Shown: positions 2,269-13,000 of the stretch, one piece after another
Layout of the letters: every line of letters starts with the position of its first letter
How positions within the stretch are numbered: position 1 is the stretch's first letter
Source of the DNA: Nitrospirota bacterium
GTDB lineage: Bacteria; Nitrospirota; Thermodesulfovibrionia; Thermodesulfovibrionales; JdFR-85
DNA: 64,000 nt
Direction of reading: 5' to 3'
Assembly: GCA_011051565.1 (NCBI GenBank)
Contig: DRKX01000080.1
Coordinates: 17,637 to 81,636, forward strand
Translations under genes and position numbers: made by a program
The notes under the pieces: model-generated
What the model was told of the DNA's origin: nothing
The model's database searches: none
What the model saw: only the letters and a program-made list of their open reading frames with translations

Positions 2269-4734
2269 CTACAGATAGGAAATCCTGTCCTTCCTCGCCT
2301 TGAATGTCTCACCGGCCACCGCAGCACCGGAGGGCTTGTCGGCACCCAGCCTCGCCTTCAATGCCGTCACCTTGTCGCCGACATCCCTGAACTTCGAATC
2401 CCAGCCGAATATCTCGACATAGATGTCGAGGGCGCGCTCGGCATCACCGTTCTTCTCGAAGGCCTCTGCGAGCTCGAACTTCGTGCTCCAGTAGGCCTCA
2501 TCCCGCTCTCCTATGTTGTCTATCGCCTCCTGCAGGGCGTCGATGGCAAGGGGGTAGAGCCCCTTCTCCATGAAGCAGAGCCCGAGCATGCTCGCAGCCT
2601 GCACCCTCCTCTTCGGATCCTTCCTCGCGGTCTGGAACTCCTTTATCGCGTCGTCTATGAGTCCCATCTCCTTGTAGGCTATACCGAGGTTGTAGTGTGT
2701 CTCGGAGTCTTCCTCATCGAGCTCCTCCGATACGCCCCGCTTGAACTCCTCGAATATCTCGAGCACCTCGCTGTCAAGGGTCGGCTCAGGCACGCCCTCC
2801 TCCTCGGGTTCTTCAGTGATGACCTCACCGAAGGGACCGGACTCTGCAGAAATATCGGCACCGGCCAATCCGCTGTCGATATCTGCAGCAGGCTCCGCTG
2901 AATCCATCGAGGCCGGTGGACCCGACTCCGAAGCCTTCGCCTCTATCTCTGCCACCTTGGCCAGTATCTCCTCGTTGCCGGGAAATACGTCGAGAACCCG
3001 TTTGTATATGGAGAGGGCCTCATCATAGAGGCCCTGCCGTTCGTAAAACTCCGCCTCGGATAGTTCGTCCTTGAAGTCATCGGCAGAGGAGGCACGCCGC
3101 GCTGCACCATCAGAGACGTGTGCATCCGGAGTCTCGACCTCGGCTCCGCCCGCCTCCGCCTCCTCGAACCCTATAGTCGCACTGCCGGCAAACTCCGTAT
3201 CAGGAGACGGTGATGCACCGGTCTCCTCTGTGGCCCCGGAGAGTTCGAGCAGCCTCGGGTCCTCGGGGTCTATCTCGAAGGCCTCCTTCAGGGCCTGTTC
3301 CCTCTGTTCTACACGGCCTTCCCTTTCGTGGATCCTGGCAAGTATGAGGCACTCGGTGACCGCCCTTTCCTTGTCGTTCATCTCGAGGTAGAGGTCCTTG
3401 AGCCTCTTGTGGACCTCCAGGTTCTCGGGTTCTTCGACCTTGAGTTTCTCCAGGACGTCCACGGCCTCGTCCAAGAGCCCGTACCTCAAGAATATGTCCA
3501 CATCGACGAGTTTCTCATCGGTTGCCTTCTCCTCGGTCTGTGACGGAAAGGCTATTCCCAACTTCTCTTCGAGTTCCGCCACCTTCGATATCACGGCCTC
3601 AGAGTCGGGCCTGATCTTCTTGGCCTCAATGTAGGAGGTGAAGGCATCCTCCAACGCCCCCTGCGCCGACTGTATCTCGCCGAGCCTAACGAGTTCATCG
3701 AAGAGTTCTTCCTCGCGGCCGAGCCGCTGGTATATCTCGACGAGCTTCTCAGAGCACTCGAGCGGAGCGGTATCCCTGAACTTCTCTATGAACTCGACCG
3801 CCTCCTCATACTGGCCCTTCCCGAGATAGTAGTCGACCACGGTCTTGTAGCTGTCCCATGCAAGCTCGTTCTGGCCCTCTTGGAGATAGACCTCTCCAAG
3901 GAGCCTGCTCGCCTCGACGGCGATCTCGTCCCCAGAGCCCGCCGGATATGCAGAGAGTATCCTGAGCAGTATATCCCTCGCGGTGGAGAGGTCACCCTCC
4001 TTCAAGAGCAACTCCGCATAGAGCAGCTGGAGGTCTATGTTGTCGGGATGGATCTCCGTCCCCTTTGCAAGCAGCTCCCTCGCCTCATCGATGAGGTCAC
4101 GCGATATGTAGAATCCGGCAAGGAGCTTGTAGACGGGTTCCTGTTCGGGGTACAGTTCGTACGACCTCTCGTAACACTCCCTCGCCTTGTCGAAGTCTCC
4201 CTTCTTCTCGGATATCCTCCCTATCTCCAGATACTCCCTGGCGGCCTCCTCGACATAACCCTCTTTCTGTAGATACTCAGCCAGCTTGATCCTCAAGGAG
4301 AGGTTGGTGGGAGCGAGGTTGATTATCCTTTCACATATGGGAATGAGTTCATCCCTGTCTCCATGCTTGATATAGGCATCGATAGAGGCGAGATAGTACT
4401 TGATGGCATCCGTTATCAGGCCCTTCTCCTCGTTAAGCTTGCCTATGAACAAGAGCGCCTTGGGATCGGCGGAGTCGATATTGAGTATCTTCTTGTAGAG
4501 TGCGAGGGCCTTGGTTATGAAACCTTCATCCCTGAAGTATTCGGCTGCCTTGTGAAAGTAGTCGACGGCTAATGCCCGGTTTCCGTTTTTGAGGCAGAGG
4601 TCCCCTATGGTATTGTATATGTTGCCGTCGGGATGGCGTGTGACATACTCCTGCCACGCATAGATAGCCTTGTCTATCTGGCCTTTCGAGAGGAACCTCT
4701 GTGCTTCTCTGAATACTGCAGCCTTATCTGCCAT
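2269..4734 (-). CDS. Large TPR-repeat protein with central acidic linker (MshN-like architecture)
   Basis: 821 aa with many 34-residue TPR-like units at both ends (e.g. AIYAWQEYV, ALALYKKIL, AIKEFQTA). The middle of the protein is an Asp/Glu/Ser/Pro-rich low-complexity segment. Confidence 0.8.
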   Translation of the reverse strand: MADKAAVFREAQRFLSKGQIDKAIYAWQEYVTRHPDGNIYNTIGDLCLKNGNRALAVDYFHKAAEYFRDEGFITKALALYKKILNIDSADPKALLFIGKLNEEKGLITDAIKYYLASIDAYIKHGDRDELIPICERIINLAPTNLSLRIKLAEYLQKEGYVEEAAREYLEIGRISEKKGDFDKARECYERSYELYPEQEPVYKLLAGFYISRDLIDEARELLAKGTEIHPDNIDLQLLYAELLLKEGDLSTARDILLRILSAYPAGSGDEIAVEASRLLGEVYLQEGQNELAWDSYKTVVDYYLGKGQYEEAVEFIEKFRDTAPLECSEKLVEIYQRLGREEELFDELVRLGEIQSAQGALEDAFTSYIEAKKIRPDSEAVISKVAELEEKLGIAFPSQTEEKATDEKLVDVDIFLRYGLLDEAVDVLEKLKVEEPENLEVHKRLKDLYLEMNDKERAVTECLILARIHEREGRVEQREQALKEAFEIDPEDPRLLELSGATEETGASPSPDTEFAGSATIGFEEAEAGGAEVETPDAHVSDGAARRASSADDFKDELSEAEFYERQGLYDEALSIYKRVLDVFPGNEEILAKVAEIEAKASESGPPASMDSAEPAADIDSGLAGADISAESGPFGEVITEEPEEEGVPEPTLDSEVLEIFEEFKRGVSEELDEEDSETHYNLGIAYKEMGLIDDAIKEFQTARKDPKRRVQAASMLGLCFMEKGLYPLAIDALQEAIDNIGERDEAYWSTKFELAEAFEKNGDAERALDIYVEIFGWDSKFRDVGDKVTALKARLGADKPSGAAVAGETFKARKDRISYL

Positions 4735-8962: not shown

Positions 8963-9116
8963 TGCACCTCCTCGTTCTGGGTTGTTGTTTCGGGAATCAG
9001 CACGGATAATCCCGGGACAGCCTTCAAAGAGTGATTATTATAGCAGAACAGGACGGCGACAGTGAAATCACGCGACCTGGACCATCAACAAGCTCCGTTG
9101 AACGGTGATGGCGGGA

Positions 9117-9156
9117 TCAAAAAAGCCCGCAATGGGGATATCGCCCTGGCGGGGGA
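9117..9156 (-). terminator. Putative intrinsic terminator closing the cyclase/FecR/peptide/two-CW cluster
   Basis: On the minus strand, an interrupted GC stem (CCCGC...GCGGG with inner GGG/CCC) is followed by CTTTTTTG. It lies about 90 nt downstream of the two-CW gene stop. Confidence 0.45.
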
Positions 9157-9244
9157 AAAAACGGACAGAATCGGGATTGCTGCTTTGAGAGACTCACGCG
9201 CTGCCGTCTAAACTCAGGGGCCTGATCAATCCGCCCGCGGAGAT

Positions 9245-9577
9245 CTAACAGACGGCGTCGGCCTGGGATATCTCGGTCAGGTATCTACCTATCGTGTTAC
9301 ACAGATCCAGCACACTTTCTTCTGATTTGACGTGGAGGTGGAACTCGCATCTCATGCACGAAGACATACATCCCCTGCCGATCTTCTCCAGCACCATCCG
9401 GCAGCCGCTGTCCTCAATGAGCCAGCAGACCCTCCCGCCGTTCACACCGTCGTTCAAGCCGTCGGCGGAGACCATGGTGGCTGCCGGACAGACTCCGAAT
9501 TCTTCGGCGCGTGCTCCGCCCGGCTCCCTGCCGCATCCCATGAACTCCCAGCAGTTTAATTTAGGGTATCCGTTCAT
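9245..9577 (-). CDS. Stand-alone two-CW domain protein, Cys-rich (10 Cys in 110 aa)
   Basis: It contains two Cys-Trp motifs (LNCWEFMGCG and RVCWLIEDSGC) plus CMSSCMRC (CX3CX2C). The pattern matches my recollection of the 'two-CW domain' family. No obvious SD. Confidence 0.65.
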   Translation of the reverse strand: MNGYPKLNCWEFMGCGREPGGARAEEFGVCPAATMVSADGLNDGVNGGRVCWLIEDSGCRMVLEKIGRGCMSSCMRCEFHLHVKSEESVLDLCNTIGRYLTEISQADAVC

Positions 9578-9667
9578 GAAATAAATTTAACAATATCTCC
9601 GTTGCGAGTAAAGGTAAAATTCACACGGGCGGGATACCCTCGGAGGCTGCTACAGGGCAGGTGGCTT

Positions 9668-9697
9668 GCAGGTGGGAAGGGCAGCCTTCCCACCTGC
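9668..9697 (-). promoter_or_regulatory. Perfect 13-bp stem-loop between the peptide gene and the two-CW gene
   Basis: The sequence is GCAGGTGGGAAGG-gcag-CCTTCCCACCTGC with no U-tract. It may be a processing, stability or attenuation hairpin. Confidence 0.5.
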
Positions 9698-9735
9698 ATC
9701 AACAAACAGAGGGGTCACAGGATCATGCCCGTCGG

Positions 9736-9951
9736 CTACCAGCAGATGTAGTACCATGTGCCGAGGGCATTCACCCACGTGCAGGGATTGCTCTGTAGAA
9801 CAGTGATACTTGCAGCGTTCTTCATGTTCTTACCTTGGAGACTCCTCTTGAACTCGGCCTTGGTCAGTTTTTTAGGTGCCTTCATGTCTCCCTTCTCCAC
9901 CTTTACAGTCCCGTTGTCCATTACCGCCAGTCTCATGACCACCCTCGGCAT
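9736..9951 (-). CDS. Small 71-aa protein with Lys-rich N-terminal part and Trp/Cys-rich C-terminus (candidate precursor/signal peptide)
   Basis: The SD is strong (AAGGAGGTTTGAAATG). The C-terminal 15 residues are CTWVNALGTWYYICW. No Sec-type hydrophobic signal is present. GC content appears lower than in neighbouring genes by eye. Confidence 0.6.
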   Translation of the reverse strand: MPRVVMRLAVMDNGTVKVEKGDMKAPKKLTKAEFKRSLQGKNMKNAASITVLQSNPCTWVNALGTWYYICW

Positions 9952-9983
9952 TTCAAACCTCCTTTGATTTTAGGAATTAAGCT

Positions 9984-10001
9984 CGGGCTCGAAGGAGCCC
10001 G
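9984..10001 (-). promoter_or_regulatory. Short GC hairpin after the FecR/TPR/barrel gene
   Basis: The sequence is CGGGCTC-gaag-GAGCCCG, with only a weak T-rich tail on the minus strand. Confidence 0.3.
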
Positions 10002-10036
10002 GCACCAAAAGCCTGCTGTCCTCGCTCCTCACCGAC

Positions 10037-13000
10037 TCAGAACGCCAGTGTGATCTCTGCCGCGATCAGGCGCTCCGGGTAGATGGAGGGATTGGTGGCA
10101 TCGGTGTCCTGGAACCTGAACTTCTCGTCAAGCAGGTTCCTCGCCCCTATCGAGACGATGCCGTACCGCTTGGGCAGCCTGTACTTGACAGAGGCATCGA
10201 CCACCCAGAAGTGATCACCGGCCTCGTATGTCGCCAGGCTGACGGGATCGACGAACTTCCCGCTCTGGGACACGTAGGTCGTCTTGAAGACGGCCGTAAA
10301 TCCGCCGCGGCTGAACAGTGAGACGGCCACGGGAAACCTCCTCGTCTTCAGGCGCTCGATATCCTCGGGGCCGAAGTATTCCGGGCTCCTCTTGAAGTCC
10401 TCGTACTGGAACTCGGCACTGACCGCCACCCAGTACAACGGTGTAAGGTAGAGGTAGAGACGGACCACGTCCTCTTGCCACTCGGTCTCCTTGTTTTCGA
10501 TTACAGGCTCAGGGGAGGTCGGCGAGACGGTCAGCATCCTGAACGGGACATCGAGCCTGCGCCTTGAAAGCTCTGCACCGCTGAATACGTCTGGCGAGAA
10601 CTTCTGATCCACTGCCGCGCCGTAGCTCCAGGCATCGGTTCCATTGGCGTCGTCGAAGAACTGGTTGAATCCTGCAACCTGCGTGGGTTCAATGGTCTGG
10701 TTGGAGACCAGCTGCCGCTTGAGCGTCCTGAAGACGGCGCCGCGCAGGGTGGTTCCGGTCGGTAATGTCCATGTAAGGCCAAGCTTCGGGTTGATCTGGC
10801 CCCGGTCTATTGCGCCGTTGTCGAAGAAGTCCGCGCTTCCCCCGATTGTCCATATCAATGCACCGGGATACCTGATGTGGGAGTAGGCGTAAAGGTTGGT
10901 GTGACGCACATCGGTCTCCTCCAGTTCGGGAGGAGGGGTTATATCTGGCTGGCCAGGTATAGAGAGGGTAGTGACCGTTCTGCTCTCGACCCCGGAGCTG
11001 AAGTGACCTAAACCGCTTATGAGACTGAAGCCCCCGGCCCCGGCATTGTAGAGGTGCTGAATCTCTCCGAGGAAACCGTTTTCCTTCGAGTTGAGAGAGA
11101 CCTCGGTAGTCCTCGGCACCCCGTAGGCGAACTCTGACGTGGATACGCGGAAGTCGTATTCCGCGTTCTTGTGGATGGCGGAAGCGATAAGTTCCGAGTT
11201 CGGGGCCATGGAATAACGGAAACCGAGGCGTATCGACCGCGCATTCTCGCGCTCCCTCCTGGTCGGAAAGTATGCGTCCGGGTCGAAGTTGAGCGAGAGG
11301 TCACCGTTCTCCTTGTCCTTGTAGCGGAACTCGGCCTGTATGCTCATCCTGTGAGAGATGTTGTACTGTGTGTATATGTTGTAAATGTCCTCCTTGAGGT
11401 CGTTGTTCTCCCTGAAGCCGTCGGTCTCGTAGTGGAACTGCCCCGCACTGAGGGAGAACCTGTCATGCACTCCGGATGCAACGACCTCGTCTCCGGTTAT
11501 GGCATTGCCGCCGTAGACGCCGCTCAACTGCAACGCCGCACGGTTTCTGTTGAAGAGAGGATTGAACTCGTTGAACGACAGGTCGGCGGGGCCGGCCCCG
11601 TCGAAGATGAATAGGCTGCTCTCGGCAAGCCGGGGCTGTACAGGGGTGATGTTTAGAGGCTGAAGCAGCTGTGACTGGAGCAGTTCGCTGACGCGTGCTA
11701 TCTCGTGTCGGGGCTGAGAGGCGTAGGTATCGGCCAGAAGCCTGTGCGCCGAGTAGTTCTTGGGATCAGAGTTGACCGACTTCCACCCCTCCACGAGGGC
11801 GAGCCTCTCAAACCCGAGATCACTGTATATCCTGGCTATACTCGCACTGCGGGCTGCGAGGTCCTCGTCGAGGAGGAGCCTGGAACGGTACACCGCGCGG
11901 TTGTCGTTCAGCTCTATCGCCTTCTGCATGTCGTGCAGGGCATCTACGGGCCTGTTGATGCTCTGTTTCAGTATCGCATCATAGAAGAACGGCGTCGGAT
12001 CATTCGGGTCGAGTTCCTTCGCTGTCCCGTACTGTTCTGCTGCGACCCCCTCGCGCCTTTCTTCGTAGTATGCCTTGCCGAGGTAGCTCCTTATGATGGA
12101 CTGGTTCGGGTCGAGGCTTACTGCGATCTCGATCTCCCGGCGCCCGTCCTTGAGATACCCCTGGCGTATCTTGACCAGACCGAGACCGAGGCGTGCAAGC
12201 GGATCGGCCTGATCGAGTTCAACCGCCCTCTCGAAAGCCGCCCTCGCCTCCGCCACCTTGGCCTGAGCAAGGCACGCAAAACCGACGACCGTGTGTGTAC
12301 GCGAAAGGGCCGGATTCAGCTCAACAGACCTGTAAGCCGCATCGAGGGCCTTGTCGACGTCCCCGAAGGAGAGCCACATCTCGGACAGGCGCGCCCATGC
12401 AAGGCTGTTTCGAGGCTCGGCCTCCACCGCCCTCTGCAGGCTCTTCAGCGCCCCCCTGAGGTCGAAGTTCGCCTGCTGCGCATAGGAGAGCGCAATCAGG
12501 GCAGCCGCCGACTCCGGTCCGGCATCCACGGCCCTGCGGGCGAGCAGCAGCGCGCGCTCCTTGTCGTTCTGAACGACTGCAATGACGGACTTAAGTGCAA
12601 TGGCCTGGACATTGTCGGGTGCCAGGGAGAGGGCGCGCTCGATATACCCGGTCGCCTCGTCGACTCTGCCCACGGAAAGGAGCAGCGAGGCCCTGTATGT
12701 GAGATAGAGCGGATCCCTCTCATCCTCGGTCACGCCCTGACGGAAATCCATGACGGGCGGGTAGTAGAGCGCCCACTGGACGGCATTCCTCGGTTTCACC
12801 ACCACCTTCAGCACAGGCGCCCTGCCCTCTTCAGCAACGGCGGACTGACCGTCGGTCAAGGTGAGACTCCCCTCACCGTTGGATGCCACGACCCTGCCCT
12901 CGAAGACCGACATGAAGGTACGTCCGGACTCCACCCTGACGAGGAACTCGGTTCCCTCCACCGAGGCGTTCACATACGGAGTGACCACCTTCAACGTCCT

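Follow-up and report, generated by a model that had tools for sequence, protein, structure and literature searches.

In a 64,000-nucleotide stretch of a Nitrospirota genome (contig DRKX01000080.1 of GenBank assembly GCA_011051565.1; hereafter the window), a 71-codon open reading frame (ORF) on the minus strand is a real gene and the obligate companion of two larger genes, which encode a cyclase with the sensor domain CHASE2 and an outer-membrane receptor resembling NsrA of Sinorhizobium meliloti (Table 1). An earlier note, made from the sequence alone, had read the product as a Lys-rich leader followed by a short core, perhaps a modified signalling peptide or bacteriocin-like product that serves as the cue for the flanking FecR/CHASE2 system. 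From the evidence assembled here, the small protein is very probably no modified peptide but a protein partner dedicated to the NsrA-like/CHASE2 module. More tentatively, it would be an extracytoplasmic protein ligand of this cyclic AMP (cAMP) sensor; its binding, its site of action and the direction of its effect are what we infer.

A three-gene order that persists

Conservation of gene order is the strongest result of the analysis. In every locus with enough sequence the CHASE2 cyclase gene comes first, followed by the gene of a protein that joins a FecR domain, tetratricopeptide repeats (TPRs) and a barrel, and then by the small gene. Wherever context was available, the small gene lay 80-170 nt 3' of the gene for this receptor of ~1100 aa, and the triad was kept in all such small-gene loci, which bears out the tie to the flanking FecR/CHASE2 genes raised in the earlier note. 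The order is retained down to ~25-30% identity of the small protein.

Close relatives keep the triad despite different outer flanks (L002 and L003), and locus L008 keeps it although its downstream neighbour changes. The triad is also present in L010 and L018 (small proteins P0009 and P0019), in L015, where the small protein (P0011) shows 32% identity, and in L022, from a Thermodesulfovibrionia metagenome-assembled genome (MAG) in which the third gene encodes a 103-aa member that is leaderless, that is, without signal peptide. Signal-peptide forms of the small protein complete the triad in L024 and in L011 (P0035), the receptor of the latter being 50% identical. Furthermore, of three receptor homologues with 54-56% identity that were picked without regard to the small gene (L025, L026 and L027), the last two have a family member directly downstream. 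Searched among 5,085 six-frame segments with the family hidden Markov model (HMM), these members end in ...SSPGCQWVLTGAGWQFVCSP (L026, E 1.3e-4) and ...SSPGCAWYFIGGKWYYI (L027, E 3.4e-8).

Table 1. Features of the window discussed in the text (positions are those of the window)
Feature	Position	Strand	Evidence or remark
Small-protein gene	9736..9951	minus	ORF, homologues, purifying selection, AlphaFold2, family alignment A2
Shine-Dalgarno sequence AAGGAGG	9958..9964	minus	6-nt spacer TTTGAA, then ATG
Antisense mirror ORF, 69 aa	9758..9967	plus	Third codon positions coincide with those of the small-gene frame
14-bp perfect GC-rich stem with 4-nt loop	9668..9699 (9668-9681/9686-9699)	minus	37 nt after the stop codon of the small gene
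Small stem-loop CGGGCTC-CTTC-GAGCCCG	9984..10001	minus	In the 85-nt spacer between receptor gene and small gene
NsrA-like outer-membrane receptor, 1116 aa	10037..13387	minus	Pfam FecR and TPR, BLASTP, AlphaFold2, Foldseek
CHASE2 class III adenylate/guanylate cyclase, 755 aa	13517..15784	minus	CHASE2 3.8e-28, Guanylate_cyc 2.8e-8
Crp-family regulator binding cyclic nucleotide monophosphates, 236 aa	16076..16786	plus	ORF, divergent to the triad
Two-CW-domain protein, 110 aa	9245..9577	minus	NF045718, 86.9 bits against a cutoff of 35
Promoter-like box TGTGAATTTTACCTTTAC, 18 nt	9608..9625	minus	5' of the two-CW gene

Conservation and translation of the small gene

The ORF begins with ATG and encodes 71 residues, MPRVVMRLAVMDNGTVKVEKGDMKAPKKLTKAEFKRSLQGKNMKNAASITVLQSNPCTWVNALGTWYYICW. 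Eight close homologues of 71-72 aa, 73-96% identical, were found in Nitrospirota and hydrothermal-vent assemblies, and members recognizable at the protein level extend down to ~25% identity. Among six independent DNA copies, pairwise ratios of nonsynonymous to synonymous substitution rates (dN/dS) in the small-gene frame were 0.04-0.26, and differences were concentrated at the third codon position (130, 122 and 435 at positions 1, 2 and 3, respectively), which establishes purifying selection on the frame. The only other frame with lowish values was the mirror antisense frame (apparent dN/dS of 0.12-0.42), as expected from the coincidence of third codon positions. Stop codons break this plus-strand ORF in six of six relatives, and we rejected it as a coding feature and regard it as a mirror artefact. 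An Rfam scan of positions 9000-10500 produced no family match.

Translation signals are equally constant, with Shine-Dalgarno (SD) sequences of the GGAGG type 5-8 nt 5' of the ATG in all 12 loci examined. The strong SD described for the window gene in the earlier note is present; its distance from the start codon was given as 7 nt and is 6 nt by our count, a difference of one at most. An N-terminal extension of the ORF is impossible, the ATG being the first start codon after a stop, and no Sec-like hydrophobic segment was seen at the N-terminus. No promoter belonging to the small gene itself was found by consensus scan or by eye.

The composition of the protein is also as the earlier note had described it, and its descriptive statements hold apart from small coordinate corrections. 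Nine Lys and three Arg residues stand against four acidic ones (pI 9.95), and the last 15 residues, CTWVNALGTWYYICW, contain C57 and C70, W59, W66 and W71, and Y67 and Y68. The GC content of the gene (0.49-0.52) is lower than that of the flanking genes (0.57-0.61).

A single predicted domain and its family

AlphaFold2 (AF2) models residues 1-71 as one compact domain with a predicted local distance difference test score (pLDDT) of 93.4. The predicted elements are strands beta1 (6-10) and beta2 (16-20), a helix (31-38), and strands beta3 (49-53), beta4 (57-62) and beta5 (65-70). In this model the supposed core forms the final beta-hairpin of a sheet with five strands, so that a layout of leader plus core, as in a modified peptide or bacteriocin, is not sustained. 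The expectation that the tail would be conserved while the leader drifts was reversed: among close relatives the ratio of nonsynonymous to synonymous proportions (pN/pS) was 0.14 for the leader and 0.28 for the tail, and the N-terminal part retains its beta-hairpin pattern throughout the family (alignment A2). A disulfide loop, also suggested in the earlier note, fares better, since C57 and C70 are predicted to be cross-strand neighbours in the terminal hairpin, which makes a disulfide-stapled hairpin plausible. Foldseek searches of the PDB and BFVD found no neighbour for the fold.

An exhaustive profile search of 1.84 billion cluster representatives recovered 26 proteins at E<=0.001. A word-indexed profile search had yielded few of the distant members, and the exhaustive one was required; the family comprises at least 26 cluster representatives. 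A search for related loci gave only four in genome and two in metagenome collections; one of these, L021, was a false positive, a PspC protein, and was discarded. Almost all members are 69-114 aa long, and they share a C-terminal signature that hardly varies, (S/T)-N-P-C-x-W-(V/I)-x-x-G-G-x-W-Y-(W/Y)-x-C-W, in which N55, P56, C57, W59 and G64 are conserved at 90% or more; in the window protein the end of the signature reads W66-Y67-Y68-x-C70-W71. In the N-terminal part two short strands flank a D-G turn, and the middle is variable (alignment A2). The cross-strand Cys pair is ~90% conserved, and we infer that the aromatic, Cys-clamped hairpin is the functional surface.

Members differ in their route of delivery and in charge. 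By inspection, a classical Sec signal peptide precedes the domain in P0031, P0033, P0034, P0035 and P0037; about 30 of 38 members are leaderless, including the window protein and its close relatives. Net charge is +5 to +9 in the window clade and -3 to +9 in the whole family, and we consequently set aside Lys-richness as a functional feature, for it is no family trait.

The family is unannotated and its compact fold is apparently unclassified. The window protein had no Pfam or NCBIfam match at E<=1, no match in a PADLOC scan and none to the two-CW model NF045718, and 30 family members searched against Pfam and NCBIfam pointed to no consistent family. Several members match a single choline/cell-wall-binding repeat, PF01473, with 11-14 bits (best 14.3, against a gathering score of 20.5), their hairpin W-V-x-I-G-G-K/R-W-Y-Y/W aligning with profile positions 2-13 of 19; the window protein itself does not match PF01473. 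Unlike that repeat, the hairpin occurs singly and not in tandem array, and it belongs to a different, Cys-flanked small domain. The likeness appears to be a resemblance of aromatic hairpins only and not membership. Profile matches to designer 'Pizza'/NHL propellers in the PDB (E ~1e-9) were rejected as pattern similarity: no stretch passes alone, and the scores arise because sub-threshold matches between the xVxVxDxxGxVxV hairpin of the N-terminus and repeated blades are summed in large number. A 1967-aa repeat protein, P0016, was treated likewise.

The receptor, the cyclase and their probable output

The 1116-aa product of the gene preceding the small gene is, judging from its alignment, a collinear homologue of S. 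meliloti NsrA: BLASTP aligned the FecR-TPR part with E 6e-20 and the barrel with E 8e-6. A signal peptide is followed by a FecR beta-domain (about residues 40-195), ~10 TPRs (226-573) and a barrel (635-1114) that closes the protein with ...TLAF. In the AF2 model, which has a mean pLDDT of 70, some 21 long strands make up the barrel, and its Foldseek neighbours are the TonB-dependent transporters (TBDTs) FptA, FhuE, FoxA, FpvA, FhuA and FecA (E 1e-12 to 1e-9). Solved complexes of this barrel fold with the protein and peptide ligands pyocin S2, phage T5 pb5, MccJ25 and Llp are among the structural matches. The segment from ~495 to 640 has a pLDDT of only 20-35, yet few parts of the receptor are better conserved in sequence, many positions at residues 548-620 being invariant among 52 homologues. 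Its place before the barrel is that of the plug in TBDTs, and no Pfam Plug domain was matched in the receptor. The idea that the small protein plugs an empty barrel was set aside, given this conserved, plug-like segment of 100-150 aa before the barrel. With upwards of 5,700 clusters at E<=1e-20, the receptor family is a large one.

Divergent to the triad lies the gene of a Crp-family regulator, whose orthologues in L001, L004, L007 and L008 carry PF00027 and PF13545 (cNMP_binding and HTH_Crp_2). It is probably the output regulator in the clade of the window. Elsewhere the neighbour of the triad varies by lineage and is usually a reader or eraser of cyclic nucleotides: a class II cAMP phosphodiesterase with a GAF-sigma54 activator in L015 (10590-12942), a GAF-sigma54 activator alone in L022 (7974-9521), a GAF histidine kinase with a response regulator in L027 (9025-10812), and metallo-beta-lactamase-fold proteins in L026 (512-1678). 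We also considered and dismissed a defence system among the neighbours, PADLOC having matched only a generic cyclase and a cyclic-nucleotide-binding domain.

Two further observations on single loci may be recorded here. At the P0009 locus (L009 368-1801, L010 552-2021) a convergent DDE transposase gene directly follows the small gene. Locus L025, from a Scalinduaceae MAG, holds a 101-aa Cys/Trp-rich ORF at 9391-9696, ending in ...CLCTWWVHHEDCWWEGIQYYCDA, that lies 950 nt 3' of the receptor gene and was missed by the family HMM, and a CHASE2 protein at 2475-4703 without a cyclase domain in the precomputed Pfam list.

Comparison with known systems

In S. meliloti, NsrA is an outer-membrane receptor that relays a proteinaceous signal to the CHASE2 cyclases CyaK and CyaD1/D2 and then to the Crp-like regulator Clr; the signal is uL2, a basic ribosomal protein whose activity was seen in extracts of plants, yeast and bacteria (PMC7529298, PMC13001267, PMC5498481). 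The window matches this system in its outer-membrane protein of ~1100-1200 aa, where a signal peptide, a FecR domain and TPRs precede a C-terminal barrel in collinear arrangement, in the adjoining gene for a CHASE2 class III cyclase and in a Crp-family regulator alongside. Several differences stand out, however. The order of cyclase and receptor genes is reversed, the receptor is only ~25% identical to NsrA, and the module has a third gene, that of the small hairpin protein, which the nsrA-cyaK locus does not. Moreover, the organisms that carry the module are free-living anaerobes of vents or sediments and not plant symbionts.

The FecA-FecR system of ferric-citrate surface signalling offers a second comparison. 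The window receptor has a 22-strand-like barrel of the TBDT type (FecA, FhuA, FpvA and FptA being among its Foldseek neighbours), and a periplasmic domain of the FecR family relays an outer-membrane event inward. In contrast to FecA-FecR, TPRs join the FecR-like domain and the barrel in one protein, the receptor gives no Pfam Plug match, no ECF (extracytoplasmic function) sigma factor is present, and the output is a CHASE2 cyclase with cAMP; nothing points to dependence on TonB or iron.

The pairing of FecR and CHASE2 is also known in Burkholderia (PMC5192318), and in Campylobacterota a CHASE2 cyclase, a FecR-domain outer-membrane protein, a TPR protein and a phosphodiesterase form clusters (PMC9239204). 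The Burkholderia BiofilmReg operon encodes a response regulator, a LysM-FecR protein, a CHASE2 histidine kinase and a DUF4136 protein (PMC5192318), and thus resembles the window in combining a FecR-domain envelope protein, a CHASE2 sensor and a small uncharacterised protein at the end of the operon. Its output, however, is a histidine kinase and its FecR domain is linked to LysM, whereas the window has a cyclase and a barrel-linked FecR domain, and DUF4136 is unrelated in sequence to the small protein. Finally, a small gene with strong translation signals beside a putative receptor recalls the agrD/agrC and comC/comD loci and the precursors of ribosomally synthesised and post-translationally modified peptides (RiPPs). 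Unlike in these, the product is a folded 8-kDa protein with no gene for processing or export, and unlike the histidine-kinase receptors of agr and com, the receptor is an outer-membrane barrel that feeds a cyclase.

Alternative explanations

That the conservation is due to an RNA element or to the antisense ORF has a negligible probability. The lowish dN/dS of the mirror frame and the hairpins on both sides of the gene could be quoted in its favour, but antisense stop codons in all relatives and a family conserved as protein, with SD and ATG, refute it, and the Rfam scan points the same way. A RiPP or pheromone precursor, whose Lys-rich leader would be removed and whose 15-residue core would be cyclised or otherwise modified and exported as a signal or bacteriocin, is very improbable as well. 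Such a precursor would fit the small size, the strong SD, the 3' hairpin, the Cys/Trp-rich end and an operon shared with a receptor, as in peptide quorum-sensing loci. Yet a single domain is predicted with confidence, the tail supplying its two final strands, and the would-be leader is the more constrained part among close relatives. The earlier note had itself remarked that no maturase or exporter is adjacent, and the comparison of loci extends this: conservation of a maturase, protease or exporter was seen at none of the loci, and by their Pfam content the neighbours in at least 12 loci are genes of signalling or housekeeping only, without a conserved radical-SAM, YcaO, lanthionine, MNIO, ATP-grasp, peptidase or ABC exporter gene. 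The window protein also matched none of the known precursor families in Pfam and NCBIfam (NHLP, Nif11, SCIFF and others). We reject the precursor on the combined grounds of the single fold, the constrained leader and the missing co-conserved maturase.

Two other roles are compatible with a dedicated protein partner. The small protein might be a structural accessory or co-receptor, that is, a constitutive envelope subunit that would attach to CHASE2, to the TPR/FecR arm or to the barrel from its periplasmic side, and would set the sensor's resting state or its specificity. An analogy is provided by small proteins of the periplasm that attach to TBDT barrels. We hold this to be doubtful, though credible. 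The fixed position directly after the receptor gene, the strong SD in 12 of 12 loci, the delivery to the periplasm of members with a signal peptide and the conservation of the entire fold, beyond a short epitope, all suit it, as do the structure of FhuA with the lipoprotein Llp among the structural neighbours of the barrel and the extra small envelope protein, DUF4136, of the BiofilmReg operon (PMC5192318). Against it, most members have no export signal, and a periplasmic subunit would need an unknown route; moreover, NsrA/CyaK of S. meliloti functions with no such gene at the locus. A cytoplasmic modulator is unlikely. Here the leaderless protein would inhibit, activate or feed back on the class III cyclase domain by binding it, this domain being the one cytoplasmic part of the module that is conserved; the two Cys might serve as a redox or metal switch, and the signal-peptide clade would be a secondary re-targeting. 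The leaderless state of the window protein, whose N-terminus cannot be extended, and of most of the family speaks for such a modulator, and so does the constancy of the cyclase while the output regulator varies (Crp-like, GAF-sigma54 activator or GAF kinase); in the hosts, anaerobic Nitrospirota and Thermodesulfovibrionia MAGs, reduced Cys pairs could bind metal. However, Sec-signal forms in an identical triad (L011 and L024) are hard to square with a cytoplasmic target, the small gene always adjoins the receptor gene and not the cyclase gene, and aromatic hairpins of the disulfide type are more typical of extracytoplasmic binding modules.

The small protein as a possible ligand

We prefer, as a tentative reading, the extracytoplasmic ligand, because one scenario covers both the signal-peptide and the leaderless forms. 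The small protein would be made from the receptor/cyclase transcription unit by way of the strong SD and the 3' hairpin. Outside the cytoplasm it would act as the receptor's own ligand, its aromatic hairpin binding the NsrA-like receptor. Binding would alter the drive of the receptor's periplasmic FecR/TPR arm on CHASE2, so that cAMP synthesis would change, and the cAMP would be read by the adjacent Crp-like regulator or, in other clades, by a GAF-sigma54 activator or GAF kinase. In the Sec-signal clades export would take the protein straight to the envelope; in the leaderless clade, to which the window belongs, it would reach the receptors of neighbouring cells only after release, for example by kin lysis. 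The idea of a ligand released by lysis echoes the sensing by NsrA of a leaked cytoplasmic protein.

Action outside the cytoplasm would be favoured by the five Sec-signal members, the highly conserved Cys pair and the TBDT-like barrel. The strongly basic protein of the window clade may also be likened to the basic uL2 signal, a likeness specific to that clade. The strict version, in which the operon makes its own cue as an 8-kDa ligand released by kin lysis or through Sec, we regard as rather doubtful.

Several points weigh against a ligand acting outside the cell. Most members, that of the window included, have neither a signal peptide nor a nearby exporter and are cytoplasmic by default, and it is assumed that lysis releases the leaderless form. 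The family as a whole does not keep a basic charge, net values ranging from -3 to +9. It is not obvious that a signal-peptide form in the periplasm and a lysis-released form meeting the cell surface would share one binding site. In addition, the family HMM detected no member at L025, an NsrA-like locus of Scalinduaceae, and none at the S. meliloti nsrA-cyaK locus; the latter implies that the module can work without the small protein.

Flanking hairpins and the two-CW gene

The earlier note had placed a perfect stem-loop between the small gene and the next gene. The hairpin is perfect, but its stem has 14 bp and not 13 and ends 2 nt further than stated. The intergenic region folds better than shuffled sequences (z = -3.1), no U-tract follows the stem, and a terminator scan found 0 terminators. 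A strong hairpin follows the stop codon of the small gene in most of the 12 loci, and in L002, L004, L007 and L022 canonical terminators, with stem and T-run, occupy the same position with unrelated sequence. The hairpin of the window therefore marks the 3' end of the unit formed by the cyclase, receptor and small genes. A role in setting the ratio of precursor to enzyme transcripts, as had been suggested, does not suit a hairpin that is no intra-operon attenuator and stands at the end of the unit.

A second, smaller stem-loop lies in the spacer that separates the small gene from the receptor gene. It is kept in seven related loci with exchanges among G-C, G-U and A-U pairs, of which one is a double-sided change (weak covariation). 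Loci L004, L007, L008 and L020 have a stem-loop of the GGGTTC-TTGA-GAACC type ~60-85 nt upstream of the small gene, and AT-richer relatives have a hairpin and T-run directly after the receptor stop codon. Spacer hairpins may cause partial termination or processing that uncouples the level of the small gene from that of the receptor.

The gene on the far side of the 3' hairpin encodes a two-CW-domain protein. Its promoter-like box occurs once in the window and is identical at 18 of 18 positions in nine related loci, in which coding DNA is only 70-90% identical. At fixed spacing the box is followed by TGT-TAAATT/TAAGTT, an element like an extended -10. In the window and in L001, L004 and L007 the ATG comes ~7 nt after this element, which suggests that the two-CW mRNA is leaderless. 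The TGTGA half-site is centred near -40, which makes this stretch a class-II site candidate for binding by the adjacent Crp-like regulator. The gene itself has three tandem paralogues in one lineage (L004 10506-11831, L005 8857-10191) and is missing from the close relative L008 (8170-8380); gene and box are both absent from L008 and from the distant loci L015, L022, L026 and L027. From this distribution the two-CW gene is a facultative companion outside the conserved triad.

Implications for CHASE2-type sensing

The signalling cascade as such is already known; its version as a three-gene module is undescribed in the literature searched. Published accounts of the NsrA, Campylobacterota and Burkholderia systems mention no such small protein (PMC7529298, PMC13001267, PMC5498481, PMC9239204, PMC5192318). 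The ligands of CHASE2, a widespread extracytoplasmic sensor domain, have been described as unknown (PMC5192318), and the only dissected NsrA/CHASE2 pathway answers to an unexpected protein signal (PMC7529298). Many of the abundant NsrA-like receptors are followed by this previously unannotated small protein, which also illustrates that a tail with the look of a RiPP core can belong to a folded domain. Being a concrete protein that can be cloned, it is a candidate for the ligand or co-receptor so far missing from CHASE2-type sensing. If it is indeed the ligand, it would be the first cognate, genetically linked ligand for a sensor of the CHASE2/NsrA type, and the module would provide diderm bacteria with a cAMP-based 'danger' or quorum signal.

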